From positions 11,196 to 75,195 of the forward strand of contig CALXSY010000005.1 in the NCBI GenBank assembly GCA_944391285.1: DNA of 64,000 nt, in the 5' to 3' direction. The notes below the pieces were generated by a model that did not search any database, had not been told where the DNA came from, and saw only the letters and a list, made by a program, of their open reading frames with translations. Positions 7,735 through 41,157 of the stretch are shown one piece after another. A program made the position numbers and the translations under genes. This stretch comes from an uncultured Clostridia bacterium. GTDB lineage: Bacteria > Bacillota > Peptococcia > Peptococcales > Peptococcaceae. Position 1 is the first letter of the stretch, and each line of letters opens with the position of its first letter.

Positions 7735-7972
7735 AAATAGCCTGTGAACAAGAGGAGTAGGATGTGGATCATCTACAGAGAAAAAGACTGCGTTTTCGTG
7801 CTGGGAGGTCTTTGATGGGGTCGTATCTGAAGTCGCTTGGGAGGCGTGAGATTGATAATAGATCTCTCCGGGTGAGCCCGTTACAGCTGATGAGTGCTGT
7901 CGCTGACAGAATTAAGGTGGTACCACGGAAGCTTACACTTTCGTCCTTTTGAGGGCGGAAGTGTTTTTTATT
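7735..7972 (+). promoter_or_regulatory. T-box riboswitch leader (Val specifier) controlling valS
   Basis: Stem-I AGAGA element. Candidate specifier GUC followed by a purine (ctgaaGTCg, 7832-7834). Conserved T-box sequence aattaaggtggtaccacgg (7910-7928). Terminator stem 7936-7960 plus T-run to 7969. Confidence 0.9.
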
Positions 7973-7991: not shown

Positions 7992-10643
7992 ATGGACGAA
8001 AGTAAAAACTTATCAAAGGTTTACGAGCCGGCTGCGGTCGAAGAAAAATGGTATAAATTCTGGGAGGACAACAAATTTTTTCAAGGCAAAATAGAAAAGG
8101 GCAAGGAAGCATTTTCTATCGTTATGCCTCCGCCTAATGTTACCGGCATGCTTCATATGGGACATGCTATGGACAATACCATGCAGGATATTCTCACCCG
8201 CTATAAAAGAATGCAGGGCTACAATACCCTTTGGATTCCGGGCACTGACCATGCCGGTATCGCTACCCAAGCCAAGGTAGAAGCGCAGATTAAAAAAGAA
8301 GGCACCGACCGTTACCAATTAGGCCGGGAGAAATTCTTAGAGCGGGTATGGGCGTGGAAAGAGCAATACGGCAATACTATTACTACCCAACTGCGCAAAT
8401 TAGGCAGTTCCTGCGACTGGGACAGAGAGCGTTTTACCATGGACGAAGGCTGCTCCAAAGCAGTTAGAGAAGCCTTTGTGCGCCTTTACAAAAAGGGATT
8501 GATTTATCAGGGCAATTATATCGTTAACTGGTGTCCGCACTGCCACACCACTATTTCCGATATCGAAGTAGAGCATGTTGAGCAGGAAGGCAAGCTTTAT
8601 CATTTCCGCTATCCCATCGAGGGCAGCGACGAATATATTCAAATCGCTACCACCCGTCCGGAAACTATGTTTGGTGATACCGCGGTTGCGGTGCATCCGG
8701 AGGATGAGCGCTATCAGCACTTAATTGGCAAATTTGCCGTTTTGCCGGTAATCGGTAGAAAGATTCCTATCATTGCCGATGAATATGTAGAAAGGGAGTT
8801 TGGTACCGGTGCGGTAAAAATTACTCCTTCTCACGATGTCAATGACTTTGAAGTAGGCAAACGCCATAATTTGCCGGAAGTAGTAGTTATCGATAAAAAC
8901 GGCAAGATGAATGAAAATGCCGGTCCTTACGAAGGCATGGACCGCTATGAATGCCGGGAAAAATTAATCAAAGATTTTGAAGCCAGCGGAGTTTTGGTAA
9001 AGGTTGATGATCATACCAATTCCGTCGGTCATTGCTACCGCTGCAATACTGTTATCGAGCCTTTAGTAAGCAAGCAATGGTTTGTTAAAATGAAACCATT
9101 GGCAGAGCCGGCTATGCAGGCGGCTATTAAGGGTGATGTGAGATTTGTGCCGGAGAGATTTACGAAAATCTATTTGGGCTGGTTGGAAAATATTCGCGAC
9201 TGGTGCATTTCCCGTCAGTTATGGTGGGGACACCGGATTCCTGTTTGGTACTGCCAAGACTGCGGCGAGGTAATCTGCGAAACTACCGATCCGACAGTTT
9301 GTCCTAAATGCGGTTCGCACAATTTACAGCAGGATCCCGATGTTTTGGATACCTGGTTCAGCTCCGGCTTATGGCCGTTTTCAACTATGGGTTGGCCGGA
9401 AAAAACTCCGGAGATGGAAACCTTCTATCCCACCAGTGTTTTGGTCACCGGCAGAGATATTATTTTCTTCTGGGTAGCCAGAATGCTTTTTGATGCGTTG
9501 GAATTTACCGGCGAAGTGCCTTTTAAAGATGTCTTAATTCACGGCTTAGTCTTGGACAGCCAAGGCAGAAAGATGAGCAAATCCTTAGGCAACGGCGTTG
9601 ATCCTTTGCAGGTTATCGAAGAAGTAGGTGCTGATAGTCTGCGCTTTATGCTCATCACCGGCAATACTCCCGGCAATGATTTGCGCTACCGCACCGAAAG
9701 ATTGGAAGCAGCCCGCAATTTTGCCAATAAGCTTTGGAATGCTGCCCGCTTCTCCTTGATGAATTTGGAGGATTATACTGCTGAAAGCAGTATTGATCCG
9801 GAATACCAAGTAGCCGATAAATGGATTATGAGCCGTTTCAGTGCGGTAAGCCGTGAGGTAACCGATTTAATGGACCGCTACGAATTAGGCGAAGCGGCAA
9901 GAGTTATTTATGAGTTTGCCTGGAATGAATTGTGCGACTGGTATATCGAAATCGTTAAACCTCGCCTTTACGGCAAGGAAATTCCGGAAAGCCGCTACGG
10001 TGCGCAGAAAACCTTGGCAGAAATCATGACTTCTACTATGGAGCTTTTGCATCCCTTTATGCCGTTTATCACGGAGGAAATTTGGCAGCATTTGCCCCAT
10101 GAGGGAGAAACCATTATGCTCAGCTCCTGGCCCATTAAAGATGAAAGCCAGATTGATTTAAAAATCAATGAGCAGATGAACTTGACCATTGAGGTTATCC
10201 GCTCCATCCGCAATCTTCGCAGTGAGATGAATATTCCTTTAGGCAAAAAGATTGAAGTAATCATCAATGCCAACTCCAAGGAGAATTACGCTTATTTAAA
10301 CGATACTTTAAGCTATATCACCGGTTTGGCAAGCATAGAAAAGATGGAACTCAAAGAGCAGTTAAGCGAAAAACCTGCCCAAGCAGTAACGGCTGTGGTG
10401 CATGGCATCGAAATTTATCTGCCGCTCAAAGGTTTGGTGGATATTGATAAGGAAATCGCTCGCCTGGAAAAAGAACTGGCGAAAATGGAAAGCGAAATCA
10501 AACGCATCGAAGGCAAGTTAGCCAACAAAGGCTTCGTGGCTAAAGCGCCGGCAGAGGTTATCGAGAAAGAGAAAGAAAAAATGGCTAAATACCAAGCCTC
10601 TAAGGAAGCGTTGTTGGTGCGCTTGAACGATTACCGGGCATAA
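7992..10643 (+). CDS. valS: Valine--tRNA ligase
   Basis: HIGH-type motif PPPNVTGMLHMGHA, KMSKS motif and a C-terminal coiled coil. 883 aa. Confidence 0.95.
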   Translation: MDESKNLSKVYEPAAVEEKWYKFWEDNKFFQGKIEKGKEAFSIVMPPPNVTGMLHMGHAMDNTMQDILTRYKRMQGYNTLWIPGTDHAGIATQAKVEAQIKKEGTDRYQLGREKFLERVWAWKEQYGNTITTQLRKLGSSCDWDRERFTMDEGCSKAVREAFVRLYKKGLIYQGNYIVNWCPHCHTTISDIEVEHVEQEGKLYHFRYPIEGSDEYIQIATTRPETMFGDTAVAVHPEDERYQHLIGKFAVLPVIGRKIPIIADEYVEREFGTGAVKITPSHDVNDFEVGKRHNLPEVVVIDKNGKMNENAGPYEGMDRYECREKLIKDFEASGVLVKVDDHTNSVGHCYRCNTVIEPLVSKQWFVKMKPLAEPAMQAAIKGDVRFVPERFTKIYLGWLENIRDWCISRQLWWGHRIPVWYCQDCGEVICETTDPTVCPKCGSHNLQQDPDVLDTWFSSGLWPFSTMGWPEKTPEMETFYPTSVLVTGRDIIFFWVARMLFDALEFTGEVPFKDVLIHGLVLDSQGRKMSKSLGNGVDPLQVIEEVGADSLRFMLITGNTPGNDLRYRTERLEAARNFANKLWNAARFSLMNLEDYTAESSIDPEYQVADKWIMSRFSAVSREVTDLMDRYELGEAARVIYEFAWNELCDWYIEIVKPRLYGKEIPESRYGAQKTLAEIMTSTMELLHPFMPFITEEIWQHLPHEGETIMLSSWPIKDESQIDLKINEQMNLTIEVIRSIRNLRSEMNIPLGKKIEVIINANSKENYAYLNDTLSYITGLASIEKMELKEQLSEKPAQAVTAVVHGIEIYLPLKGLVDIDKEIARLEKELAKMESEIKRIEGKLANKGFVAKAPAEVIEKEKEKMAKYQASKEALLVRLNDYRA

Positions 10644-20649: not shown

Positions 20650-20917
20650 CAATAAAAATGCTATGACCAAGAAGTAGTAACTATGGCAAAACCTTAAAGA
20701 GAGTTGGCGGTTGGTGCAAGCCAATGAAGGGGAGAAATAGTGAATTCATCTTGAGAGCAGCACGCCGAGATTTTAGTAGGTGGTGACGGTTGCGCCCGTT
20801 ATAGTGCTAGGGTATAAGCAATAGCCGTACCCAAAGAGGATATCGTCGTAAGGCGATATTAAATTGAGGTGGTACCACGGGATATTTGCCCGTCCTCTGA
20901 GTTGAGGACGGGTTTTT
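20650..20917 (+). promoter_or_regulatory. T-box riboswitch leader (candidate Phe specifier UUC) controlling the paaK-like/ACT operon
   Basis: Stem-I aaagagag...ggtgcaag. Specifier-loop context agtgaaTTCa (20745-20747). T-box sequence aaattgaggtggtaccacgg (20861-20880). Terminator cccgtcctc-tgagt-tgaggacggg plus T6 (20889-20917). Confidence 0.88.
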
Positions 20918-20957: not shown

Positions 20958-22277
20958 ATGAAAACAGCAGTTAACAAAATTTACAATCCGGAGATCGAAT
21001 GTATGTCCCGGGAAGCTATCAGAGAAATGCAGAACGAACGCCTGCAAAAAACTATTCGCTTAGTGTATGACAAGGTAGAAGTATACCGCAAACGTATGGA
21101 TGAAAAAGGCGTTAAACCGGAGGATATCAAAACTATTGACGATTTGCACCTTTTGCCGTTCACTGAGAAAACCGATTTGCGAGATTATTTCCCTTATGGT
21201 TTGTTCGCCGCTGATTTAAAGGATATCGTGCGGATTCAGGGTTCATCGGGCACTACCGGCAAGCCTATTGTCAGCGGTTATACCGAAAATGACGTTGAAG
21301 CTTGGAGCGAAATGGTTGCCAGAGCATTATACGCTGCCGGAGGCGGAGAAGATGACATTGTGCAGGTTGCCTATGGCTACGGCTTATTCACCGGCGGTTT
21401 GGGTGCTCACCAGGGTGCAACTAAAATTGGGGCAACAGTTATCCCCATGTCCAGCGGCAACACCGAGCGTCAAATTATGATGATGCAGGAATTGGGCGCT
21501 ACCATGCTTTGCTGCACTCCATCTTATGCTACTTATTTAGGTGAGACTGTAAAGGAAAAGGGTTTGCAGGGCAAAATCAAATTAAAATCCGGCTGCTTCG
21601 GAGCTGAGCCTTGGACAGAAGAAATGCGCCAAAACCTGGAGAATCTCTTAGATATTGATGCTATGAATATTTACGGCTTAACAGAAATGGGCGGACCTGG
21701 TATTGCTTTTGAATGTCTGGAGAAAGACGGCATGCATATTAACGAAGATCATGTTATCGCCGAAATCATCGACCCGGTAACCGATGAACCGTTGCCTTAC
21801 GGCGAATACGGCGAGTTAGTATTCACCAGCATTACCAAAACCGGCATGCCCCTTATTCGCTATCGTACTCATGATATCTGCTGCTTAAATCCTGAACCCT
21901 GCGCCTGCGGACGCACTCATGTACGCATGAGCCGTATTACCGGACGAACTGACGATATGATGGTTATCCGCGGAGTCAATGTTTTCCCCAGCCAGATTGA
22001 GTCAGTATTGATGCGTGTAAAAGGCGTAACTCCCAATTATATGCTGATTGTTGACCGGGTTAACTCTACCGATACTTTAGAGGTTCAGGTCGAATTAAGC
22101 GAAGAAATGTTTACCGATACAGTAAGCGGTATCGAAAGAATCCGTGATGAAATCAAAGAAAATATTAAATCGGTAGTTGGCATTAGTGTTAAAGTACAAT
22201 TAGTACCGCCTAAAACTATTCAAAGATTTGAAGGCAAAGCTAAGAGAGTAATTGACAACCGCAAATTGGGATTCTAA
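20958..22277 (+). CDS. Phenylacetate--CoA ligase family adenylate-forming enzyme (PaaK-like)
   Basis: AMP-binding core [14 protein letters not shown] and the C-terminal region typical of PaaK/coenzyme F390-synthetase-like proteins. 439 aa. Confidence 0.85.
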
Positions 22278-22291
22278 AGGAGGAATAGCAT

Positions 22292-22729
22292 ATGTATGTA
22301 AAACAAATTTCCGTGTACTTGGAAAATGTTCGTGGTACCTTAAGAGAAATGACTAAAACCTTGGCGCAAAACGGCGTTGATATGCTGGCATTGTCTATCG
22401 CTGATACTGCTAATTTCGGGATCGTGCGCTTAGTAGTGAGAGAAGAGCAGATTCCTTTAACTATTGAATGTATGCGCAGTGCAGGATTTATGGTAAGAAT
22501 GGACGAAGTAATTTGTGTGCAGGTGCCCAATAAACCGGCAGGCTTGGACAGCGTATTGGAGGTAGTAGATAACGCTGGATTATCTGTAGAATACATTTAT
22601 TCTTTTACCATCAGTTTAGAGAATGGTGCCTTGCTGATTATCCGCACCAATGACAATGACAAAGCTTATGAGGCTTTGAATAAAGGCAAAATCAAAGTTT
22701 ACAATCAAAACGAGATCAATAGTTTATAA
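22292..22729 (+). CDS. ACT domain-containing protein (tandem ACT, small-molecule binding)
   Basis: 145 aa. Starts KQISVYLENVRGTL..., the usual form of the ACT protein that commonly follows PaaK-like genes in anaerobes. Confidence 0.75.
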   Translation: MYVKQISVYLENVRGTLREMTKTLAQNGVDMLALSIADTANFGIVRLVVREEQIPLTIECMRSAGFMVRMDEVICVQVPNKPAGLDSVLEVVDNAGLSVEYIYSFTISLENGALLIIRTNDNDKAYEALNKGKIKVYNQNEINSL

Positions 22730-23718: not shown

Positions 23719-24087
23719 TTAATGCCCGGGGCAAGAATGCTCACCGTGACCATGGGATTCGCAAGCGATTTGATTGTCTTTCAGCTCACCGCGCAGCCAA
23801 GCTTCGGCAACTTGGCGAACATCGCCGGAGCAACCACGAATTACTTCGATGCCGTTCGCATTTAAGACATTTTTAGCACCGTCACCCATGTTGCCGCCGC
23901 ACATAACCAAAACGCCTTTTTGAGCTAATACCGGAGCAATGCCGGATTTGCAGCCGCAGCCTTCCGGAGACTCCATAGTTTCCTCAGCAACAATTTTACC
24001 GCCTTCAACGGTAAATAAAGTGTAATAAGCACAATGACCAAAATGATCATCGATACGACCATCTCTGGTAGGACAACAGATTTTCAT
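23719..24087 (-). CDS. NifB/NifX-family (dinitrogenase FeMo-cofactor-binding-like) small protein with a Cys/His-rich tail
   Basis: MKI..P...G.IDDHFGHC..Y N-terminus typical of NifX/NifB-C-like DUF proteins. C-terminal tail CESHGHGEHSCPGH. Confidence 0.75.
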   Translation of the reverse strand: MKICCPTRDGRIDDHFGHCAYYTLFTVEGGKIVAEETMESPEGCGCKSGIAPVLAQKGVLVMCGGNMGDGAKNVLNANGIEVIRGCSGDVRQVAEAWLRGELKDNQIACESHGHGEHSCPGH

Positions 24088-24118: not shown

Positions 24119-24147
24119 ATTATAACGCAGTTATAGACATTTGTCAA
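24119..24147 (-). promoter_or_regulatory. Consensus promoter for the NifX-like gene
   Basis: Minus strand: TTGACA (24142-24147), 17-bp spacer, TATAAT (24119-24124). Confidence 0.65.
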
Positions 24148-24207
24148 TAAAAAAGTCATAAAATAACTTAAAATCCATTTTTGATGATTATAGGCAAATG
24201 ACAATAT

Positions 24208-24266
24208 TGTGATAATGTGGTGATAATGTTGTGATCAACTTGTGAAATCTTGAAAATTTCTTGACA
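24208..24266 (+). repeat. Helically phased (11-bp period) direct repeats upstream of the surface-protein-A promoter
   Basis: GTGATAATGT at 24209 and 24220, GTGATCAACT at 24231, GTGAAATCT at 24242, then CTTGA at 24249 and 24260. TTGACA -35 at 24276. Confidence 0.7.
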
Positions 24267-24275
24267 CTTAAACCA

Positions 24276-24305
24276 TTGACAAACAGCAAATAAAAATTAT
24301 ATAAT
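24276..24305 (+). promoter_or_regulatory. Promoter of surface protein A
   Basis: TTGACA (24276-24281), 18-bp spacer, TATAAT (24300-24305). About 150-nt 5' UTR before the AGAGGAGGAG RBS. Confidence 0.65.
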
Positions 24306-24460
24306 GCCCTTGTAAGGAAGTTGTAACTTTTCTTAGGCTGAAGTAAAAAAGAGATTGTGTGCAATAACCCAATGACAACTAATTAAAATAAAAGCCGGAG
24401 TAAAGTGCAGAAAATTCCCAAAAAAAAGAATATTTTCCCGAAAAAGAGGAGGAGAAGAAA

Positions 24461-27439
24461 ATGAAAAGGAAAAAGATTTGTGCGGCTATCACCTTAGTAG
24501 CATTCATTTTGACCATGATGCCAATGATGGCTTTCGCTGCTTCGGCAAGCAATTCATCTATCTCGGTCGATGATGGCAGTGCTAAAGCCGATGGCAAAGA
24601 CACGTTAACATTTATTGTTGACCTGGATGAAAACTTAAACACTAAGCAAGTTGAAGGCTCTGCTGACGCTTATCAAGCAGTAGCTAAAGAAAATGTAGCA
24701 AGAAAAACTGTTTTAGCAGCAGATTACTACAACAATGATGGTACTGTGACTTATCAAACAAACAGTGATTATGATGCAAGTACTGAGTACTACAGAAAAA
24801 TTGCTGGCACTCAGGTTCAGTATGAAAAAGAAAATTCACCGCAAGTTTCTACTGAAAAATATTTAACCACCACTGTTTATGAGGCTGATCAAAAAACAGG
24901 AAATGAAACTATTATCGTTAGTGATCCATTAGCAGCCGATTCTGCATTTACTAAAGATGATGGCAAAAACTATGTGGCTATTGCCGAAGCAAAAGTAGAA
25001 TCTGAAGAAGCTTTAAAGCAAGGAACTTACTACACAAAAAGTGATAAAACTTATACTAAAGACGATAGCTATGATATAAGTGAAACGTATTACACCATCA
25101 CTGATGTAGCTGACCCTCAAACTTATCAAAAATTAACCCAAACTTATTACAATGATAATGGTACTGTGACCTATAACAGCGGAGATAAATACGAAAGCTT
25201 AACTGACTATTACAACAAAAAAGAAGCTGTAGCTGACAGCTATGAAAAAGTTGAGGCAGACAGCGTAGCTAAAAAAGAAGTATTAACCAAAGAGTACTTC
25301 AATAACGATGGTACAACTACTTATACCGTTGGCAGCGATTACAATGACGGCACTGCGTATTATGAAAAAGTAAAAGCAACTGAAACCAAAGCTACCCAAT
25401 ATTTATATATCTGGGCTGAGAGAAACGGCACCTATTCTGATGCTGATCTGCTTTCTTTAAGCAAAGACAGCGGCTACAGCTCCTACTTGGCATTGGACTA
25501 CAGCCAAATTTCTAAAGGCGAAACTAAAGTATATGTTAAATCCAATACTGCCGGAACCATCACCTTAAAAGCTTATATCATTACCTCGGACAGCAAACCA
25601 AGCTTCCCGGAAGTTTACAATGGATCTTCTAGTTTTCTGAAAACTGCCTTAGTCGGCAATGGCGCTACCGGTAAATTTAATGCTACTTCCAGTGAAATCA
25701 CCGTTTCCGGTACCGTAACTCCTTATGACAGCGGCAAAGCTCAAACCAGCAAAGATTTTGCTAAAGATACTACTTACAATGGCAATTTAAATGCCAATAA
25801 CGGTGTTGATTACTACTATGTATCTTTGAAATTCCAAAAAGGCGGCAGCAAATTAGTTGATGAGGAAGTTTCTTTCTCTATTGATAAAAACGGCGGTACC
25901 ATCAACAAAGAATCTGATAAAACCAGCGCTACCGGTGCGGTAAACTTTAAAGTATCTGCCAGCAAAGGCGGCACTTATACTGTAACCGTTGACTGCGGTA
26001 CTTACAGCGAATCCTTTAAAGTAGTATTTGGTTCTGCTGATATTACTAAGATTCAAGTTGTTTCTTCTACCGAAGAAGTAATTGCTGTTGACCAAAATGA
26101 AGAAGTAGCAGTAGAGTTAGTGGCTTATGATGCTAATGGCAACACTATTAAAGCAGATAATACCGTAGCTAATTCTTTAAATGAAAAGTTTAATGTAGAA
26201 GTAACCAAAGCTCCTGCTGATTCTTCAATGCAGGATGAAGTATTGAGCGATCCCTTTAAATATAACGGAGATTATTCTTCCAATATCTATTTAAGCTTTG
26301 AGCCGGATGCAGTTGGCTCCTACACCTTAAAAATCTACAACAATGTTACCGGCGTATCTGACTATGCATATCTGACAGCTAAAGAGTTTGGCAAAATCAC
26401 TTCTGCTACAATTTCTTATGATTCCGCTTCTTACACCTTAGGCAGCACCACTGAAGCTCCTACCGTAAAAGTAGTAGACGAAAACGGTGTAACCAAAACT
26501 GCTTCTAAAGGCTCTGTACAATTCTCTTACAGCGGTATTGGTGTAGCAAACTTTAACTCTTCCAACGGTAAGATTACCTTTAAAGATGATACTGACTATG
26601 TAGGAAATAAAATTACTGTCAATGTTGTAGTAAGCAATAAAGTAGCAGCTTCCACCACAATTACTATCGGCAACGAGGCTTCTTATTTAGGATTCAAAGA
26701 AGCAAATGGTGCTGTTGGCGAAGAAGTAACTGTTACCGGTTCTGCTTATGATTATGATGGCAAGTTAAGTGCAATCGGCGGTTCCAGCGGTGATTACACT
26801 GTAAAAGTACAAAATGCTTTAATTACCTCCAAACCGGAAGGAAGCAACGCTACTATCGATGCTTCTAATTTTGAAAATAACAATTTCTTAACTACCGGTT
26901 CAGCTAATGTTATCGTAAGCTGCAACAAAGAAGGTAAGGTAGTAGGTAATGTAGTATTAGAAATCACCAACAATACTACCAATAAAACCACTTATTTAGC
27001 CGGTGTAGTTACTGTTAACTTTGGCAAATATACCGATGAGGACAAAACCTATAGCAAAAATGTAACTATGATTCTTGGTTCTAAAACCTTCGTTTTTGAT
27101 GGCGGCGTATATACTACCGATGTAGCTCCTTTTATCAGCAACGGACGTACTATGTTGGCTATCCGTGCCTTAGCTGAATCTACCGGTGCTGATGTTGAAT
27201 ACAACGATGTTACCCGCACCGTTACCATTACCGGTAAAGATTTAGAAGCTACTATGGTTATCGGCTCCAATGTTTTAACCGTTAACGGCGAAACTACCGT
27301 AATGGATGTATCCGCATCTATCGTAGACGGCAGAACAGTTATTCCGGTACGCTATGCTGCTGAAATCTTAGGCTATGACTTTGAGTTAACCTATGACAAT
27401 AAAGGAAATATTGTAGCAGTAACTATGTATCAAGAATAA
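24461..27439 (+). CDS. Secreted cell-surface protein A: signal peptide, Tyr-rich repeats, Ig-like domains, C-terminal copper-amine-oxidase-N-like domain
   Basis: Signal peptide MKRKKICAAITLVAFILTMMPMMAFA|AS. Three ~35-aa repeats (VL..DYYNNDGT.TY..SDYD..T.YY.K). Beta-rich Ig-like middle. C-terminal ~110 aa motif VAPFI.NGRTM..IRALAES.GA.V.Y......V....G.....G.....VNG.....D....I.DGRT.IP.RYAAE.LG. Confidence 0.85.
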   Translation: MKRKKICAAITLVAFILTMMPMMAFAASASNSSISVDDGSAKADGKDTLTFIVDLDENLNTKQVEGSADAYQAVAKENVARKTVLAADYYNNDGTVTYQTNSDYDASTEYYRKIAGTQVQYEKENSPQVSTEKYLTTTVYEADQKTGNETIIVSDPLAADSAFTKDDGKNYVAIAEAKVESEEALKQGTYYTKSDKTYTKDDSYDISETYYTITDVADPQTYQKLTQTYYNDNGTVTYNSGDKYESLTDYYNKKEAVADSYEKVEADSVAKKEVLTKEYFNNDGTTTYTVGSDYNDGTAYYEKVKATETKATQYLYIWAERNGTYSDADLLSLSKDSGYSSYLALDYSQISKGETKVYVKSNTAGTITLKAYIITSDSKPSFPEVYNGSSSFLKTALVGNGATGKFNATSSEITVSGTVTPYDSGKAQTSKDFAKDTTYNGNLNANNGVDYYYVSLKFQKGGSKLVDEEVSFSIDKNGGTINKESDKTSATGAVNFKVSASKGGTYTVTVDCGTYSESFKVVFGSADITKIQVVSSTEEVIAVDQNEEVAVELVAYDANGNTIKADNTVANSLNEKFNVEVTKAPADSSMQDEVLSDPFKYNGDYSSNIYLSFEPDAVGSYTLKIYNNVTGVSDYAYLTAKEFGKITSATISYDSASYTLGSTTEAPTVKVVDENGVTKTASKGSVQFSYSGIGVANFNSSNGKITFKDDTDYVGNKITVNVVVSNKVAASTTITIGNEASYLGFKEANGAVGEEVTVTGSAYDYDGKLSAIGGSSGDYTVKVQNALITSKPEGSNATIDASNFENNNFLTTGSANVIVSCNKEGKVVGNVVLEITNNTTNKTTYLAGVVTVNFGKYTDEDKTYSKNVTMILGSKTFVFDGGVYTTDVAPFISNGRTMLAIRALAESTGADVEYNDVTRTVTITGKDLEATMVIGSNVLTVNGETTVMDVSASIVDGRTVIPVRYAAEILGYDFELTYDNKGNIVAVTMYQE

Positions 27440-27459
27440 ACCCTCATCTTATATTAAGG

Positions 27460-27488
27460 CTGATTCCTGCGGGAATCAGTCTTTTTTT
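27460..27488 (+). terminator. Intrinsic terminator of surface protein A
   Basis: ctgattcc-tgcg-ggaatcag followed by a T-run. Confidence 0.8.
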
Positions 27489-27535
27489 AATGGAAAATGC
27501 TTCTATCAGTAAAATTGCCGAAAAAAGTTATCACA

Positions 27536-27590
27536 GTTTAAACACCGTTTAAGCACTGTTTAATCACGTACTCTTGATATTCTCTTGATA
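27536..27590 (+). repeat. Helically phased (11-bp period) direct repeats upstream of the surface-protein-B promoter
   Basis: GTTTAAnnCAC at 27536, 27547 and 27558. CTCTTGATA at 27571 and 27582. TTGACA -35 at 27600. TTATCACAG at 27528 is the reverse complement of the copy-A motif TGTGATAA. Confidence 0.7.
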
Positions 27591-27599
27591 CCTGAAATA

Positions 27600-27629
27600 T
27601 TGACAAAAGCTATCTCAAAAGGCTATAAT
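27600..27629 (+). promoter_or_regulatory. Promoter of surface protein B
   Basis: TTGACA (27600-27605), 18-bp spacer, TATAAT (27624-27629). Confidence 0.65.
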
Positions 27630-27769
27630 ACATATTGTAAGGAAAATGTTACTTTTCTTGGAAAGCAACAAAATGATTACGCGTAATGAAAAAAGCCAGT
27701 AAGCCAAGATTAAGTGCAGAATTTTTTGAAAAAAGCACACAATTTTATCACAAATGAGGAGGACAAAAA

Positions 27770-30748
27770 ATGAGGAAAAGAAAAATCTGGGCTTTTGTTA
27801 CTTTGGTAGCTTTTGCCTTAACCATGATGCCTATGGGAGCCTTTGCAGCCTCAGCCAGCAATTCATCAATTGCAGTTGATGACAGCAGTGCCAAAGCCAA
27901 TGGCGAGGACACTTTGACCTATATCGTCGATTTGGATGATGATTTAAAAACTACCCAGACCACCGGCGATAGCTACACTGAAGTTAGTAGCGTTAACACC
28001 AAAGAGGTCTTAACCCAAATCTATTATGATTCTGACGGATCAACTACTTATAATATTGACGATGTTTATGATGAAGACATAACTTATTATAATAAGGTTG
28101 AAGGTCAGCCAGCAGAATATGGAGAGGTTGTATCCCCTGCAACCGAAACATATTTAACAGAAGCTGCAAGCTACATTTCTAACGGCAGTATCGGCGGTGA
28201 CAGCATTACAATTGTCGAGCAGTCTTCCGGCGAAGAGTTTGATGAAGCTAAAACTTATGTTCAAATTACCCAGGATACAGGGACATACGACGAAAGCAAG
28301 AGTTATTATACTAAATCGGGAGATACCTATACAAAAACAAAGGAAGTAATAACTCCTTCAGAGGGAGAATATTACACCATTGAAGCAACTGAACCAACTA
28401 CCGAAAAAAAATTAACTGCTGATTATTACACAGAAAATGAAGGAGTTTATACTGAAGTTAAAAGCGGTACTGCCTATGTTGCTGGAACTACTTATTATGA
28501 GCAGACCCAACCGGCTACAGAAGACAGTTATTCTATAGCTACTCCAACTACCAAAACAGTATTAGCAGAAGATTATTATGATGAAAACGGAAATCTCGAC
28601 TATGCAAAAGATAGCGATTATGATGAAACAGGAGAAACAAAATACTATCAAAAAGGCACAGCAACAACTACCAAAGCCGCTCAGTATTTATTCATCTGGG
28701 CGGAGAGAAACGGCTCCTATTCCGATGCCGATTATCTTGCCTTAAATGATGAAGACGGCACTTATGAAGACGGCACTTACAGCTCTTATCTGGCATTGGA
28801 CTACACCGACATTGAAGCCGGCGAAAGCACTGTTTATGTCAAATCCAATACCGCCGGAACAATCACCTTGAAAGCCTATATCATTACCTCTGATTATCTG
28901 CCCAGCTTTGCAGAGGTTTACAACGGCTCTTCCGAATTCTTGAAAACTGCTTTAGTAGGAAGCGGTGACACCGGTAAATTTTCTGCTACCTCCAGCGAGA
29001 TTACCGTTGAAGGTACAGTAACGCCTTATGTGAGCGGCGATGCCGGCACCAGTTCGGATTTCGAAGCCGATGCAACCTATGACAGCGGGCTAAGAGCCAA
29101 CAACGGCGTTGATTACTACTATGTATCTTTGAAATTCAAAAAAGGCGGCAGTAAATTAGTCGGCGAAGATGTAGCTTTTGCTGTTGATAAAAACGGAGCT
29201 ACCATCAACAAAGAAGAGGATACAACCTCAGCTACCGGTGCGGTAAACTTTAAAGTTTCTGCCAGCAAATCCGGCACTTATACCGTTACTATTGACTGCG
29301 GCAGTTACAGCGAATCAATTGAATTAGTCTTCGGTGCTTCCAGCATCACTAAAGTAAATGTAGTTTCCAGCGCTGAAGAAACTATTGCTGTAGACCAAAA
29401 TGAAGAAGTAGCAGTAGAGGTAGTGGCTTATGATGCCAACGGCAATTCCATTAAGGCTTCTGATTCCGTTGCTTCGACCTTAAATGAAGATTTCAGTGTT
29501 GAAGTAACCAGCGCCCCCAGCGATTCTTCCTGGGAGGATGAAACCTTAAGTGATCCTTTCAAGTACAATTCCAATTATTCTTCTTATGTTTATTTAAGCT
29601 TTGAGCCCGATGCTGTCGGCTCCTACACCTTAAAGATTTACAACAATACCACCGGTGTAGCGGACTATGCTTATTTGACCGCCGAGGAATTCGGCACAAT
29701 CGCTTCGGCAACTATTTCCTATGATTCGGCTTCCTACACCTTAGGCAGCACTACTGAAACTCCGACGGTAAAAGTAGTTGACCAAAACGGCGTCACCAAA
29801 ACCGCTTCTGCAAGCTCCACTAAATTTTCTTACAGCGGTGTCGGAGTAGCAAGCTTTGATTCTTCTAACGGTGTTATCACCTTTAGAGATGATGAAGAGT
29901 ACGTCGGCAATCAGATTACGGTAAATGTAGTAGTTAGTAATAAAGTTTCTGCTTCCACCACCATTACTATCGGCAATGAAGCTTCTTACTTAAGCTTTGC
30001 TGAAACTGACGGTGCCGTCGGTGAAGAGGTTAGTGTAACTGGTTATGCTTACGATGCTGACGGCAATTTAAGTGCAATCGGCGGCACCAGTGATGATTAT
30101 ACCGTAACGGTGCAAAGTGCATTGATTACTTCTAAACCTGAAGGCAGTACCGCTACCATTGACGCCGACAATTTTGAAGATGCAGCCAATAACTTCTTAA
30201 GTGAAGGCTATGGAACGGTAGTCGTCAGCTGCAATACGGAAGGTACTGTAGTTGGCAATGTAGTTATAGAGATTACCGACAATGACACTTCGGAAACATT
30301 TTATTTAGCCGGCGTAGTTACCGTTAATTTCGGCGAAGCAAGCACTTCCGGAAACAACTATGCTCAGACTGTAACTATGATTCTTGGCTCCAATACCTTT
30401 GTTTATGACGGAGGAGTCTGCACCACTGACGTCGCTCCCTTTATCAGCAACGGACGCACCATGATCGCTATCCGTGCTTTAGCTGAATCTACCGGTGCTG
30501 ATGTTGAGTACAACGATGCTACCCAAACTGTCACCATTACCGGCGACGGGATAGAAGCTACTATGATTATCGGTTCCAATATTTTAACCGTTAACGGAGA
30601 AACTACCGTCATGGATGCATCTGCATCAATCGTTGACGGCAGAACAGTTATCCCGGTACGCTATGCTGCGGAAATCTTAGGCTATGACTTTGAATTAACT
30701 TACGACGATAACGGCAACATCGTAGCCGTAACTATGTATCAAGAATAA
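27770..30748 (+). CDS. Secreted cell-surface protein B (paralogue of A, same architecture, also 992 aa)
   Basis: Colinear with 24461-27439. The signal peptide, residues from ~303 onward and the C-terminal copper-amine-oxidase-N-like domain are highly similar. Residues ~62-302 are strongly diverged but keep the Tyr-rich repeats. Confidence 0.85.
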   Translation: MRKRKIWAFVTLVAFALTMMPMGAFAASASNSSIAVDDSSAKANGEDTLTYIVDLDDDLKTTQTTGDSYTEVSSVNTKEVLTQIYYDSDGSTTYNIDDVYDEDITYYNKVEGQPAEYGEVVSPATETYLTEAASYISNGSIGGDSITIVEQSSGEEFDEAKTYVQITQDTGTYDESKSYYTKSGDTYTKTKEVITPSEGEYYTIEATEPTTEKKLTADYYTENEGVYTEVKSGTAYVAGTTYYEQTQPATEDSYSIATPTTKTVLAEDYYDENGNLDYAKDSDYDETGETKYYQKGTATTTKAAQYLFIWAERNGSYSDADYLALNDEDGTYEDGTYSSYLALDYTDIEAGESTVYVKSNTAGTITLKAYIITSDYLPSFAEVYNGSSEFLKTALVGSGDTGKFSATSSEITVEGTVTPYVSGDAGTSSDFEADATYDSGLRANNGVDYYYVSLKFKKGGSKLVGEDVAFAVDKNGATINKEEDTTSATGAVNFKVSASKSGTYTVTIDCGSYSESIELVFGASSITKVNVVSSAEETIAVDQNEEVAVEVVAYDANGNSIKASDSVASTLNEDFSVEVTSAPSDSSWEDETLSDPFKYNSNYSSYVYLSFEPDAVGSYTLKIYNNTTGVADYAYLTAEEFGTIASATISYDSASYTLGSTTETPTVKVVDQNGVTKTASASSTKFSYSGVGVASFDSSNGVITFRDDEEYVGNQITVNVVVSNKVSASTTITIGNEASYLSFAETDGAVGEEVSVTGYAYDADGNLSAIGGTSDDYTVTVQSALITSKPEGSTATIDADNFEDAANNFLSEGYGTVVVSCNTEGTVVGNVVIEITDNDTSETFYLAGVVTVNFGEASTSGNNYAQTVTMILGSNTFVYDGGVCTTDVAPFISNGRTMIAIRALAESTGADVEYNDATQTVTITGDGIEATMIIGSNILTVNGETTVMDASASIVDGRTVIPVRYAAEILGYDFELTYDDNGNIVAVTMYQE

Positions 30749-30766
30749 ACCCTCATCATATATTAA

Positions 30767-30797
30767 GACTAATCTCTTAGGGGATTAGTCTTTTTTT
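30767..30797 (+). terminator. Intrinsic terminator of surface protein B
   Basis: gactaatc-tcttagg-gattagtc plus T7. Confidence 0.8.
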
Positions 30798-30851
30798 GTA
30801 ATCTGGAAGTAAAAAATATGTTATTTTTTTTGACAAATATCCTTTTACCCC

Positions 30852-30880
30852 TTGACAATTTCCCGGGAAATGCGTATACT
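30852..30880 (+). promoter_or_regulatory. Promoter of the polyamine-operon leader
   Basis: TTGACA (30852-30857), 17-bp spacer, TATACT (30875-30880). Confidence 0.65.
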
Positions 30881-30886
30881 TAGATT

Positions 30887-31228
30887 CGTATGAATGATAT
30901 TCCTGATGGGACTTTCATGCAAATATTTTCGACCACCTTTATCTTAAAGGTTAAGGCCACGGACAGCCGGGTCGACTGCCGATCGGCAACTTTGGTTGCC
31001 TTATTGATTGGGTTTTATGCTCAAATTTTATAAGTTGGTTACTTTATAACCAGTGTGCCTTTTGCACATCATGCTTGTGAAACGGTCAATAAGAGTAGTA
31101 AAAGTAAAATATTTGCTGTATAGACTCTGATCCCATCTTTAAGTATTTCGTATCTTTTCGTCTGTCCGAAAAATATTATGTCGAAATACCCAAGCAAGCA
31201 ATGTGCCAATGCATTGCTTGCTTTTTTA
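30887..31228 (+). promoter_or_regulatory. Long structured 5' leader with intrinsic terminator, upstream of speD (unclassified attenuator/riboswitch candidate)
   Basis: About 340 nt between the promoter and a strong terminator: aagcaagcaatg-tgccaatg-cattgcttgctt plus T-run (31192-31228). Several perfect small hairpins: ccttta/taaagg 30945-30960, ggcaac/gttgcc 30984-31000, nested gtatttcg...cgaaatac 31142-31179. No known riboswitch class recognised. Confidence 0.6.
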
Positions 31229-31255
31229 TTTTTTAAATTTTAGGAGGGGTATATT

Positions 31256-37620: not shown

Positions 37621-37674
37621 TTTACACAAAATTTACATTTAGAGATAGTAATTTTTACATACTATCTCTATAAT
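37621..37674 (+). promoter_or_regulatory. Pho-box-like phased TTTACA repeats, a perfect 10-bp inverted repeat and a -10 element upstream of the Na/Pi-phoPR operon
   Basis: TTTACA at 37621, 37632 and 37654 (spacing 11 and 22 bp). Inverted repeat AGAGATAGTA-N9-TACTATCTCT at 37641-37669. TATAAT at 37669-37674. Confidence 0.5.
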
Positions 37675-37706: not shown

Positions 37707-39461
37707 ATGACCATTTTCAATGTCTTATCGTTTTTAGGCGGATTGGCGCTTTTCTTGTTCGGCATGACTATCATGGGTGAAGCCTTGGAAAAAGCTGCCG
37801 GCAGCAAGCTCAAAGCGATATTATCCAAACTCACTACCAGTCCTATCAAAGGTTTGCTTTTTGGTGCCGGAGTTACAGCCATTATCCAAAGTTCTTCCGC
37901 TACAACTGTTATGGTGGTGGGCTTCGTAAACTCTGGACTCATGCAGTTAGGACAAGCCATCGGTGTTATTATGGGTGCCAATATCGGTACAACTATGACT
38001 GCATGGATCTTGAGTTTATCAGGCATTTCCGGCGAAGGAATTTTATTGAAACTGCTGAAACCATCTTCATTTTCACCGGTTTTGGCTTTTATCGGCATCG
38101 GTCTTTTAATGTTTTCTAAAAAAGACAAAATGCGCAACTTTGGCTATGCACTACTGGGCTTTGCAGTTTTAATGTTTGGTATGGAAACTATGTCGGATAA
38201 TGTCAAACCATTAACTAACGTGGAAGGCTTTACCAATATTTTAACAGCTTTTTCTAATCCGATTTTAGGTATCTTAGCCGGCACAGTCATTACCGGTATT
38301 ATCCAGAGTTCCTCGGCTTCGGTGGGTATCCTGCAAGCTTTGTGCGTAACCGGTGCTGTCAGCATCGGCAGTGCTATTCCCATCATCATGGGACAAAATA
38401 TCGGTACCTGCGTAACCGCATTGATCTCATCAATCGGCACCAGTACCGGCGCAAAAAGAGCAGCAGCAGCACACTTGTATTTTAATATTATCGGTTCGAT
38501 AGTCGGTGTAACTATCTTTTTAATCGTAAGAACTATATTCCAGCCGGATATTTTTTCTGCCAGCGCTACTCAATGGGAAATCGCCGTTATTCACACCGGC
38601 TTTAACGTCTTTTGTACCTTATTGATCCTACCGTTTATCAAACAGTTGGAGAAATTAGTTTGTGTTACCGTGCGAGAGCATAAAGAAAGTAAAAAAGAAA
38701 AAAATGTACTTTTGGACGAACGTATGATGTTAACTCCGTCTATTGCTTTGGAAAATTGTCAAAATCTTACATTCCAAATGGCTGAGTTAGCTCAAGAAAG
38801 TCTATTCTTATCCTTGCGTATGCGGGAAAAATACGACTATAAAGACGAAGAAACTATTCTAGCCATGGAAGAAAAAATCGACCAATACGAGGATGCATTG
38901 AGCACTTATCTGGTGCGTTTAAACAGTAAATCCTTATCACAAAGGGATAACAGTATCGTTTCTAAGCTATTGCATGACTTAGGTGATTTGGAGCGTATGG
39001 GCGATCACTCGGTTAGTATTATGAATGTCTATCGGCAAATGCATGAAAACAACTTAAAGTTCTCAGACAAAGCTACCGAAGAGTTAGAAATTTTAATTAA
39101 AGCGGTCAATGAAACCTTAGAGTTGACCTTTAGCGGCTTAATCGAAAATGATATGACCGCAGCATTCATGGTTGAGCCATTATCAGAAGTAATCAAGAAC
39201 TTGAGGAAAACTTTGATGGACAAACATATCATGCGTCTGCAAGAAGGCACTTGTACTTTAGAGATGGGTATGCTGCTTTCCGAATTACTGCATGATTTAG
39301 GACGCATAGTAAATCATTGCTCTAACTTGGCAGCATATCAAATCGAATATTCCCAAGACAGCTACGATGTTCATGCTTATATTGAAAGCGTCAAAAAAGG
39401 TACCGATCCTTTGTTTGTCAATCTTTATCAGGATTACAGCCGCAAATATGCGCTTGCATAA
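37707..39461 (+). CDS. Na+/phosphate cotransporter family protein (NptA-like) with C-terminal PhoU-like domain
   Basis: Duplicated Na_Pi_cotrans motifs (QSSSATT.. and QSSSASVGI). C-terminal helical ~220 aa with PhoU-type E/D..D motifs (LGDLERMGDH). Confidence 0.85.
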   Translation: MTIFNVLSFLGGLALFLFGMTIMGEALEKAAGSKLKAILSKLTTSPIKGLLFGAGVTAIIQSSSATTVMVVGFVNSGLMQLGQAIGVIMGANIGTTMTAWILSLSGISGEGILLKLLKPSSFSPVLAFIGIGLLMFSKKDKMRNFGYALLGFAVLMFGMETMSDNVKPLTNVEGFTNILTAFSNPILGILAGTVITGIIQSSSASVGILQALCVTGAVSIGSAIPIIMGQNIGTCVTALISSIGTSTGAKRAAAAHLYFNIIGSIVGVTIFLIVRTIFQPDIFSASATQWEIAVIHTGFNVFCTLLILPFIKQLEKLVCVTVREHKESKKEKNVLLDERMMLTPSIALENCQNLTFQMAELAQESLFLSLRMREKYDYKDEETILAMEEKIDQYEDALSTYLVRLNSKSLSQRDNSIVSKLLHDLGDLERMGDHSVSIMNVYRQMHENNLKFSDKATEELEILIKAVNETLELTFSGLIENDMTAAFMVEPLSEVIKNLRKTLMDKHIMRLQEGTCTLEMGMLLSELLHDLGRIVNHCSNLAAYQIEYSQDSYDVHAYIESVKKGTDPLFVNLYQDYSRKYALA

Positions 39462-39487
39462 TTTAAAATTGCTAAAGGGGGGAGAAG

Positions 39488-40159
39488 ATGATTTATATTT
39501 TGGAGGACGATGCCAATATTCGTCAAATGGAAGCTTATGCCTTGGAGCACAGCGGTTATGAAGTGAAACAGTTTGAAAACAGTGACGAATTGTGGGAGGC
39601 GTTGTCCAAAGCTTTGCCGGAAATGCTGATTTTAGATCTGATGCTGCCCGGTGATGAAGATGGCTTAGCCGTTTTAAATCGTCTGCGTTCAACCCCCAAA
39701 TATGCAAAAATTCCGGTTATCATTGTCAGTGCTAAAGACAGCGAGCTGGATTTGGTTAAAGGCTTGGACAGCGGTGCTGATGATTATATCGCCAAGCCTT
39801 TCGGCATTATGGAATTTATCTCCCGTATTAAAGCAGTTTTGCGCCGTATTGATACTGCGCCGACTAAGCAAATAGTCTTCGGCGATATCGTTTTTGATGA
39901 TGACAAAAAACAAATCTTTGTCAAAGGCGAACTATGCCATTTAACCTTTAAAGAGCAGGAACTGCTGAAGCTTCTGCTGCTTAATTCAGACATTGTCCTA
40001 ACCAGAGAAGTAATCATGGACAAAATCTGGGGCTTTGATTATTTAGGCGAAAGCAGAACAGTGGATATGCATATTAAAAGCATCAGACAGAAGCTGGGAG
40101 CCTGCGGAGGATACATTAAAACGGTGCGGGGTATCGGTTATAAGGTTGAATTAGGATGA
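39488..40159 (+). CDS. OmpR/PhoB-family response regulator (PhoP-like)
   Basis: Receiver domain (ILEDD..., LDLMLPG.DG, phospho-acceptor Asp context) plus a winged-helix C-terminus (T.EV..D.H...R.KL.......I.TVRG.GY). Confidence 0.88.
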   Translation: MIYILEDDANIRQMEAYALEHSGYEVKQFENSDELWEALSKALPEMLILDLMLPGDEDGLAVLNRLRSTPKYAKIPVIIVSAKDSELDLVKGLDSGADDYIAKPFGIMEFISRIKAVLRRIDTAPTKQIVFGDIVFDDDKKQIFVKGELCHLTFKEQELLKLLLLNSDIVLTREVIMDKIWGFDYLGESRTVDMHIKSIRQKLGACGGYIKTVRGIGYKVELG

Positions 40160-41157
40160 AAAAGAAAATATATATCTATTTTGTGATGATGGGGATCATA
40201 ATTTTTGCAGGCACAGTGCTATTGGCAGCAGTGATGCTAAATAATTTCTCCTGGGTAGAATTAAAAAGTTATTCTTGGAAACTGATTATTTATATCGTTA
40301 CTTTGCTTATCCTTATTGTTCTTTTGGCGGCTGTATTAGCTCGTCATTTAACAAAATGCTTAGTTGAACCAATTGAACAAATGGCTGATAATTTAGAAAG
40401 CGTTTATCAAAAAGTGCCTTATCCGGAACTGATACCCTTTGCTCTCACTCTTCAAGCCGCAGAGGAAGAAAAGAAGCAGAGCGAAGAGCAGAGGAGGGAG
40501 TTTACTGCCAATGTCAGCCATGAACTCAAAACTCCTTTAACCAGTATTTTAGGCTACAGCGAGATGATTGAAACCGGTTTAGCCAATAAAGAGGACATCA
40601 AGCTTTTTGCCGGCAAGATTCGTTCTGAAGCAGAGCGGCAACTGCACCTCATCGCGGATATTATTCAATTAAGCGAGCTGGATGTCAAAAGCTCAAAAGA
40701 CAATTTTGAAAAAGTTGATTTGTACGCTTTAAGCGAAAGCGTGGCTGAATATTTATCCTTTGCCGCCCAAAATTATCAAGTAAGCCTGAGCATTGAAGGC
40801 AAGCATTTAACAGTAATGGGCAGCAAAAGTCTCTTGGAAGAATTGATTTACAATCTCTGCGACAATGCTATTCGCTATAACCGCCCCAACGGCAAGGTTG
40901 TAATCAGAATCGGCAAAAAAGGTGAAAGAATCGTCCTTTCTGTCAGTGATAATGGCATCGGTATTGCTCCGCAATACCAAAACCGAGTCTTTGAGCGTTT
41001 TTACCGGGTAGATAAAAGCCGCAGCCGGGATACCGGCGGAACAGGATTGGGTTTGGCTATCGTAAAGCATGTGGCTATTCAGCACGATGCCGAGCTGTTT
41101 TTAAAAAGCCTGCCCGGCTTAGGCACAACTATCGAAGTAAGTTTTCAGGACAATTAA
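40156..41157 (+). CDS. Sensor histidine kinase (PhoR-like, two TM helices, no obvious sensory domain)
   Basis: H-box FTANVSHELKTPLTSI, N-box CDNAIRYN, G-boxes DNGIGI and GGTGLGLAIV. ATGA overlap with the response-regulator gene. Confidence 0.88.
   Translation: MKKKIYIYFVMMGIIIFAGTVLLAAVMLNNFSWVELKSYSWKLIIYIVTLLILIVLLAAVLARHLTKCLVEPIEQMADNLESVYQKVPYPELIPFALTLQAAEEEKKQSEEQRREFTANVSHELKTPLTSILGYSEMIETGLANKEDIKLFAGKIRSEAERQLHLIADIIQLSELDVKSSKDNFEKVDLYALSESVAEYLSFAAQNYQVSLSIEGKHLTVMGSKSLLEELIYNLCDNAIRYNRPNGKVVIRIGKKGERIVLSVSDNGIGIAPQYQNRVFERFYRVDKSRSRDTGGTGLGLAIVKHVAIQHDAELFLKSLPGLGTTIEVSFQDN

Follow-up and report, generated by a model that had tools for sequence, protein, structure and literature searches.

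The closest analogue of the locus described here is the sap-eag / sl2-eag gene pair of the Bacillus cereus group. The locus consists of two adjacent genes, A and B, for large predicted surface proteins, and it lies on a 64,000-nucleotide stretch of DNA (the window) from an uncultured Clostridia bacterium of the Peptococcaceae (assembly GCA_944391285.1, contig CALXSY010000005.1, positions 11,196 to 75,195 of the forward strand). The sap and eag genes of Bacillus each have their own promoter and terminator. Temporal succession, control by Spo0A, CodY and PagR, and a lattice have been shown in Bacillus, whereas A and B are known from sequence alone. The sl2-eag products of Bacillus cereus AH187 succeed each other during growth and alter the surface properties (PMC9277125). 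Like sap-eag of B. anthracis and sl2-eag, A and B are adjacent same-strand paralogues with a common anchor module and an acidic isoelectric point (pI), and their predicted body fold is similar to the assembly domain of Sap (Foldseek, 1.2e-11). They differ from that pair in the proposed anchor (a C-terminal PF07833 domain, three N-terminal SLH repeats in Sap and EA1), in the bodies (75-90% identical, whereas the crystallisation domains of Sap and EA1 are distantly related), and in a directional loss of lysine in one paralogue (B), for which we know of no described counterpart.

The slpA cassette types of C. difficile also present an exposed hypervariable domain on a conserved anchoring part, and their alleles are likewise exchanged by recombination via conserved flanks, with near-clonal sequence on either side. 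However, C. difficile has one gene, cleavage into low and high molecular weight (LMW/HMW) parts and CWB2 domains, whereas here there are two genes and PF07833, and the variable part of A and B is an insert in the first domain. The SbsA, SbsB and SbsC proteins of Geobacillus stearothermophilus are surface layer (S-layer) variants within one species in which Ig-like beta domains are strung as beads; SbsC and SbsB are the best structural matches of A and B, with low template modelling (TM) scores. Unlike A and B, the Sbs proteins have SLH or other N-terminal anchors, and their variants are switched by DNA rearrangement rather than from a pair of resident promoters. In the envelope of Syntrophomonas wolfei, the most abundant protein is Swol_0133, which has a C-terminal PF07833 as its sole domain and was predicted by the authors to be an S-layer protein (PMC3582634). 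It can be likened to A and B by domain description only, as a large acidic protein (pI 4.7) with a C-terminal copper-amine-oxidase N-terminal-like domain. Its gene is single, and its S-layer status is likewise predicted. To our knowledge, the S-layers of gut Clostridia other than C. difficile are almost unstudied.

An earlier note on this DNA had described the tandem duplication of a complete expression unit encoding two secreted paralogues. We favour, with a probability of roughly 0.55, the reading that the locus is an ancient, fixed tandem duplication of an expression unit for a secreted, wall-anchored, all-beta S-layer-type coat protein of ~105 kDa. An adjacent S-layer-type pair with a strain-variable tip is a familiar theme; the protein family itself is uncharacterised, and the charge split between the paralogues is new here.

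Two colinear expression units

A and B form colinear units of ~3.2 kb each (24276-27490 and 27600-30799; Table 1), in which promoter, leader, ribosome-binding site (RBS), open reading frame (ORF) and terminator follow each other in both copies, so that the whole expression unit has been tandemly duplicated. The promoter scan found only two + strand sigma-70-type matches of 12/12 in the region, and these are the TTGACA-18-TATAAT promoters that the earlier note had placed in the two units. An alignment of the regions upstream of A and B extends from the proximal repeats across the two promoter hexamers and 25 nt into the leader. The GAGGAGG RBS, 7-8 nt 5' of the ATG in A and in B, the signal peptide and the 992-codon ORF are all read in the sequence of both units, in agreement with the note. 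The untranslated region (UTR) of 150-190 nt given there has to be shortened, since the leaders measure ~149 nt (A) and ~134 nt (B) when transcription is assumed to start 6-7 nt past the -10 box. Near-identity does continue beyond the stop codon, where 20 of 21 nt of a spacer are the same in A and B (AACCCTCATC[T/A]TATATTAAG), and a terminator hairpin followed by a T-run comes next in each unit (27456-27483 and 30765-30792); the stems of A and B differ by compensatory changes.

Age and fixation of the duplication

The tandem duplication is ancient. The A and B proteins are 68% identical overall, and the proportion of synonymous sites differing (pS) is 0.62, equivalent to a synonymous distance (dS) of ~1.3 with synonymous sites near saturation. 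The ratio of nonsynonymous to synonymous distance (dN/dS) is 0.18 between A and B and 0.10-0.24 between alleles of the same paralogue across strains, showing that selection maintains both genes. In every strain, both ORFs are unbroken and evolve under purifying selection.

The duplication is also fixed in the species of the window: at least six strain haplotypes have it at one and the same locus. A 95-kb ENA scaffold is identical to the window, and the pair is present as well in five mutually divergent haplotypes from independent assemblies (L004, L015/L016, L026 and L027). In all of them (window/L001, L004, L015/L016, L026 and L027), it is flanked by a Nitro_FeMo-Co-family gene and the speD polyamine operon. 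Together with the dS of ~1.3, this recovery bears out the view that the copies are old and not an assembly duplicate. A comparison of copy number and cassettes among strains, which the earlier note had proposed, found the pair constant and the insert alleles variable.

In the sister species (L017), one gene of 974 aa follows the same neighbouring gene; more distant relatives also have one gene, of 750-850 aa and without the insert, but it lies elsewhere, for instance between purA and tig-clpP-clpX. When the core site patterns are polarised by the outgroup, A and B are sisters at 264 sites vs 164 and 168 for the other patterns, and thus the duplication postdates the split from the L017 lineage. 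As to the position of the host, the asparaginyl-tRNA synthetase (AsnRS) of the window shares 76-77% identity with its Anaerotignum lactatifermentans counterpart, and metagenome groups are found at 89% and 98-99%. This places the host among uncultured relatives of the Anaerotignaceae (Lachnospirales), known from metagenome assemblies only, which are probably of gut origin to judge by record names and by the gut MAGs in which relatives occur. We have also observed 2-3 dispersed paralogues of 28-32% identity in each of two metagenome-assembled genomes (MAGs) of gut 'Peptococcaceae' from water buffalo and mouse (L005/L006/L009 in one MAG, L007/L008 in another); the coat-type gene has therefore multiplied more than once, and non-tandemly in those genomes.

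Mosaic divergence between the paralogues

The divergence between A and B is mosaic and not uniform. Protein identity falls from ~76% over the signal peptide to ~34% over the insert, then rises to 75-90% for the core and to 85-92% for the anchor. The C-terminal two-thirds combine 75-90% protein identity with a pS of 0.5-0.7, that is, with many synonymous differences, as had been noticed from the sequence.

The same note had read the near-identical 3' end as a hint of gene conversion, which stands for an old event and falls for a recent one. The synonymous distance to the outgroup is equal in the anchor and elsewhere (pS 0.66-0.72), and the A-B distance is lower in the anchor (0.35-0.46 vs 0.50-0.68 elsewhere). 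In addition, the ratio of differences shared by A and B to those shared with the outgroup is 1.60 in the anchor vs 0.80 in the core (Fisher P=0.0013). The doubled ratio and the lower pS imply that the A and B anchors coalesce later than the core, and indicate that the anchor and 3' end were homogenised long ago, not recently. A recent conversion tract was rejected because identical runs are not significantly longer than expected by chance: the longest, 30 nt at the 3' end, has equals elsewhere (permutation P=0.15), and the runs are 30-38 nt long in nine A-by-B comparisons from three haplotypes. A synonymous-codon count for conversion at the 3' end was not significant either (P=0.15).

At the opposite end, the first 60 codons (24461-24640 vs 27770-27950) encode protein that is ~76% identical with a pS of 0.92, above random expectation, and synonymous codon choice differs systematically between the 5' coding ends of A and B.

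Predicted architecture of the proteins

The family alignment runs from a near-invariant signal peptide through a first beta domain split by the insert, a conserved core of ~550 residues and a small variable site to the anchor. The signal peptide, read from the sequence, has a KRKK n-region, a hydrophobic core and an AFA-A site, and is conserved across the family. The insert measures 245 residues in A and B as well as in L017, and is shorter or missing in other family members. A second insertion hot spot lies in the last body domain (A residues ~838-846, columns ~1060-1120 of alignment A4); it is short in A and B and holds up to ~60 extra residues elsewhere in the family.

Only the C-terminal Cu_amine_oxidN1 domain (PF07833) exceeds the Pfam cut-off (E=1e-28; 99.8 and 98.6 bits, cut-off 24.2). 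A Big_1 match is sub-threshold in A (21.6 bits) and B (25.3 bits; cut-off 34.9) and reaches up to 52 bits in homologues. Neither SLH (at E<=0.1) nor CWB2 gave a Pfam match in A or B. An AlphaFold (AF2) model built from the family alignment of 35 sequences has a predicted local distance difference test (pLDDT) score of 86 and is all-beta from residue 33 to the end. Its best matches in a Foldseek search against PDB are SbsC (6.8e-14), SbsB (7.2e-12) and Sap, and the modelled fold thus fits an S-layer-type body, short of proof. The composition is typical of the S-layer class as well (pI 4.05-4.5, 2-3 Cys, Thr+Ser 22-24%).

The PF07833 end is kept in 9 of 10 distant homologues sampled, and one has a cohesin and a dockerin instead, which makes the C-terminus look like an exchangeable attachment module. 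In a surfaceome, PF07833 has been found on peptidoglycan hydrolases (PMC4137172); work on Paenibacillus hydrolases takes it for a wall-binding module (bioRxiv 2026.09.23.753664), and the cell-surface protein OlpC contains it (PMC3413522). Because the domain occurs on hydrolases and surface proteins and is replaced once by cohesin-dockerin, we infer that it acts as a non-covalent wall anchor. Two homologues, P0206 and P0064, have the core but not the PF07833 end; in its place P0206 has CHB_HEX_C, cohesin and dockerin modules, and is thus a coat-type body on a cellulosome-style attachment.

A sensitive search with the core only retrieved 149 representative clusters among 1.84 billion, and a scan of 185,579 species-representative genomes found relatives at ~30% identity only, in gut 'Peptococcaceae' and Clostridia MAGs. 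Contigs with a family member (P0016-P0063) are mostly ~2.5-3 kb long, assemblies breaking at the gene flanks. Since metagenome assemblies tend to break at the coat locus, the family is probably under-represented in binned genomes, owing to its strain-level hypervariability.

A hypervariable insert on a tyrosine scaffold

The insert is made of four modules of the pattern (V/L)L..YY..DG..tY.....Y.....YY. Among 13 full-length relatives, its tyrosines are invariant and nearly all other positions are variable. A separate model of residues 28-330 has a pLDDT >90 across ~240 residues, and its fold gave no significant match in PDB (best E 0.075) or among the BFVD viral predictions (best E 0.066). Between strains, the flanking genes are 95-99% identical in nucleotides and the insert ~70%, in A and B alike, with a pS of 0.36-0.38 and a proportion of nonsynonymous differences (pN) of 0.17-0.18. 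Over the 5' 1.8 kb of A, L004 is identical to the window, although the B inserts of the two differ strongly; hence recombination reshuffles the A and B alleles independently. The pattern of the insert is that of a putative exposed, diversifying face on a conserved scaffold.

Charge divergence and expression signals

The paralogues have diverged toward opposite charge, B being lysine-poor and hyper-acidic and A lysine-gaining. All A-type alleles have 75-79 lysines and a net charge of -31 to -48, and all B-type alleles 35-38 lysines and -103 to -116. When charge changes were polarised by the outgroup across the well-aligned two-thirds, 16 lysines present in the outgroup and A were lost in B vs 1 in the reverse direction (p=3e-4), and the gains after duplication were 20 Asp/Glu in B and 12 Lys in A. 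These polarised changes amount to directional subfunctionalisation and not to drift, and the pair is a natural experiment in charge subfunctionalisation after duplication. With only half as many lysines as A, B will be under-detected by tryptic metaproteomics.

Several features are of the kind that goes with abundant proteins, namely the 12/12 promoters, the strong RBS, the long leader and a low GC content at third codon positions (GC3), which is 0.32 in A and 0.39 in B vs 0.44 +/- 0.04 in 45 other ORFs. A leans most to GTA, GCT, TCT and TTA codons. By analogy with other low-GC Firmicutes, this codon bias suggests that both genes are highly expressed, A more than B.

Coat protein or adhesin

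The assignment of A and B to the S-layer class is indirect. The wall-associated, S-layer-like architecture proposed in the earlier note gains support from PF07833, from the Foldseek matches to SbsC, SbsB and Sap and from the published C-terminal PF07833 on surface proteins and on abundant envelope proteins. There are, however, points that weigh against it. The TM-scores of the Foldseek matches are low (0.1-0.25), and generic Ig-chain proteins score nearly as high. NCBIfam has no model for A or B. The established S-layer anchors that we know of are SLH and CWB2, not PF07833, and our literature search found predictions only, and no case of PF07833 tied to a proven S-layer. The family was not found in the species representatives of cultured Anaerotignum, so that no cultured relative with a described S-layer backs the assignment. 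Finally, the window holds no ribosomal-protein genes with which to calibrate the codon-bias analogy, and the unrelated rex and maf genes have a low GC3 too.

The strongest alternative, which we nevertheless regard as unlikely, is that A and B are wall-anchored Ig adhesins or fibrils of the invasin/intimin kind and not lattice formers, the tyrosine-rich insert being a head that binds host glycans, dietary glycans or other cells as ligands. The sub-threshold Big_1 matches, stronger in homologues, would fit such proteins, as would intimin as the best PDB match by sequence (1.9e-4) and the invasin and cadherin-like chains among the Foldseek matches; tyrosine-rich surfaces are, moreover, typical of carbohydrate-binding sites. 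Nevertheless, the best fold matches are S-layer proteins, the expression signals are extreme and the codon bias strong, and in the relatives each genome has a single copy, at a conserved locus, with an allele diversity like that of S-layer cassettes. In addition, the invariant tyrosines act as a structural scaffold in the AF2 model (pLDDT >90).

If, as we favour, A and B are coat proteins of the S-layer type, they would be exported by Sec and cleaved after AFA, PF07833 would hold them non-covalently on the wall, and the Ig-like chain would form the coat, either as a lattice or as a dense layer. The tyrosine-scaffold insert would then be the outermost face, diversified by phage, immunity or competitor pressure. 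Both proteins would be strongly expressed, with A as the main component in view of its stronger codon bias, and the charge density of the coat would depend on the A:B ratio, which the distinct distal repeat arrays may tune. Such a coat would set the contact of this uncultured lineage with phages, immunoglobulins and mucus, and with this pair PF07833 would become an established S-layer anchor. The hypervariable domain could serve as a strain marker and is likely a phage-receptor site.

Promoters, leaders and regulation

Phased upstream repeats, reported earlier for both units, were recovered as 11-bp arrays 5' of each promoter by Tandem Repeats Finder (TRF). The distal array of A varies among strains in whole 11-bp steps, with 4 copies in the window and L026, 6 in L004, 7 in L015 and none in L027, and that of B has a fixed number of ATCACAGTTTA-like units. 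Across ten A and B promoters, both hexamers and the 18-nt spacer are kept in all, the upstream element TCTTGA-N5-TCTTGAYAC is present in all (one base off in the B promoters of L026/L027), and the leader start TGTAAG-N5-TGYTAC-TTTTCTT is conserved downstream of all. Orthologues of other species have a leader start of the form TTGTAA-N5-TTG(T/A)(A/T/C)(A/G)C-TTTTTC.

The conserved leader hairpin of the earlier note survives as a sequence motif and not as a structure. The supposed hairpins fold with -4 and -5 kcal/mol (z-scores 0.1 and -1.1 vs shuffles), that is, at shuffle level; the whole leaders give z-scores of -1.25 and +1.75, and the leader of the L017 orthologue folds without a hairpin. 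Conservation of the leader start without structure suggests a protein-binding site, in DNA or RNA, or a determinant of 5'-end stability. Rfam 15 has no family that matches the leaders or the 3' UTR; outside the leaders it gave only sub-threshold, chance-level matches. Pairing of the 3' spacer with the 5' leader is no better than with shuffled spacers. TGTAAG-N5-TGTAAC bears an imperfect resemblance to what we take to be the WalR consensus, a lead only.

The shared proximal architecture argues for a common basal control of A and B, and the distinct distal arrays may leave room for differential tuning. Co-expression with A dominant is the arrangement that we would favour over successive or alternative coats. 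That A (lysine-rich, moderately acidic) and B (lysine-poor, hyper-acidic) are mutually exclusive or condition-specific coats, as the earlier note suggested, switched by a regulator that reads the distal arrays, much as EA1 takes the place of Sap in Bacillus anthracis and Bacillus cereus, ranks next among the alternatives and is also unlikely. The distal arrays do differ between A and B in sequence and orientation, the copy number varies in A, the charge divergence is strong and directional, the sl2/eag products offer a precedent of growth-phase succession (PMC9277125), and a two-component system of the OmpR family, PhoB-like, lies directly 3' of the single-copy gene of L017. On the other hand, both promoters are perfect, and the proximal TCTTGA repeats and the leader start that they have in common speak for common and not opposite control. 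Phase variation by an invertible promoter was rejected, as no inverted repeats able to flip a promoter were found at either one. A Pho-box identity of the coat-promoter repeats was likewise rejected: the Pho-box-like TTTACA-N5-TTTACA is clean only at 37621-37637, and the repeats do not match it.

A further and more doubtful proposal is that A and B would represent a Gram-positive surface-layer class so far unstudied by experiment, with a C-terminal PF07833 anchor, a tyrosine-scaffold tip whose fold has no known relative, and a two-component, charge-tunable coat, whose ratio would be set by an OmpR-type regulator reading the 11-bp repeats.

An artefact or a decaying duplicate, i.e., an assembly-collapsed repeat or one copy being a silent pseudogene, has only the general frequency of such cases in its favour, and is so improbable as to be refuted by the saturated A-B dS, the recovery of the pair in at least six independent assemblies, the two intact ORFs with an allele dN/dS of 0.1-0.24, the promoters and leaders that are identical in the window, L004 and L015 despite a 2-5% difference in the flanks, and the variant spacers and leaders of L026 and L027, which nevertheless keep both hexamers.

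Table 1. Features of the two expression units (coordinates of the window).
Feature	Coordinates	Strand	Basis or remark
Distal 11-bp phased repeat array of A, TGTGATAATGT-like	24203..24252	+	TRF period 11; strain comparison
Proximal direct repeat TCTTGA-N5-TCTTGACAC of A, just 5' of -35	24248..24267	+	10-promoter comparison
Promoter A, TTGACA-18-TATAAT (12/12)	24276..24305	+	promoter scan
Leader start of A, TTGTAAGGAAGTTGTAACTTTTCTT, TGTAAG-N5-TGTAAC and T-rich tract	24310..24334	+	conserved in B and orthologues
RBS GAGGAGG, gene A	24446..24452	+	sequence
Gene A, 992 aa, mature pI 4.5, 75 Lys, net -48, GC3 0.32	24461..27439	+	
Predicted Sec-type signal peptide of A, MKRKKICAAITLVAFILTMMPMMAFA then ASAS	24461..24538	+	sequence reading; family-wide conservation
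Tyrosine-scaffold hypervariable insert of A, aa ~60-305	24638..25375	+	
Core of A, aa ~306-865, predicted Ig-like beta-domain chain, one sub-threshold Big_1	25376..27055	+	
Cu_amine_oxidN1 (PF07833) of A, proposed wall anchor	27095..27403	+	99.8 bits, cut-off 24.2; 5 Lys
Conserved 21-nt 3' spacer and intrinsic terminator of A	27440..27490	+	
Distal 11-bp array upstream of B, ATCACAGTTTA-like	27532..27567	+	GTG/CAC core orientation opposite to A
Proximal direct repeat TCTTGA-N5-TCTTGATAC of B	27572..27591	+	sequence; promoter comparison
Promoter B, TTGACA-18-TATAAT (12/12)	27600..27629	+	promoter scan
Leader start of B, TTGTAAGGAAAATGTTACTTTTCTT	27635..27659	+	promoter comparison
RBS GAGGAGG, gene B	27756..27762	+	sequence
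Gene B, 992 aa, mature pI 4.05, 38 Lys, net -111, GC3 0.39	27770..30748	+	
Tyrosine-scaffold hypervariable insert of B, aa ~58-310	27941..28699	+	
Cu_amine_oxidN1 of B	30407..30694	+	surrounding C-terminal segment aa 861-992 without any lysine
Conserved 21-nt 3' spacer and intrinsic terminator of B	30749..30799	+	

Neighbouring genes

A third perfect promoter, TTGACA-17-TATAAT, is found at 24119-24147 on the - strand, facing away from gene A. It is directed at a small gene of the Nitro_FeMo-Co family (23719-24087), which in both the window's species and the sister species is conserved as the gene upstream of the coat gene.

Downstream of B, a leader of ~400 nt (30830-31255) precedes the polyamine operon, which starts with speD at 31256 and comprises speD, a decarboxylase gene, speE, speB and carboxyspermidine pathway genes up to 37594. 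This leader contains a near-consensus promoter (30852-30880) and an ldcC/SpF59 RNA motif (30930-30982) scoring 63 bits against a gathering score of 37.2; a strong hairpin resembling a terminator (31192-31223) lies just 5' of the speD RBS. The layout suggests an attenuator based on an orphan riboswitch candidate.

The TTTACA-N5-TTTACA box (37621-37637) lies 5' of a fused Na/Pi-cotransporter-PhoU gene, which is followed by a PhoB/PhoR-like two-component system with its PhoB-like regulator at 39488-40159; the fused gene and the two-component system together span 37707-41157. In L017, the same Pho-box-like repeat (~3945-3961) and the two-component system are immediately 3' of the single coat gene.

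The window also contains T-box leaders at 20654-20900 and 7735-7951. The former precedes AMP-binding (PaaK-like) and ACT-domain genes (20958-22729), an unusual target, and the latter precedes an ORF of 883 aa (7992-10643).

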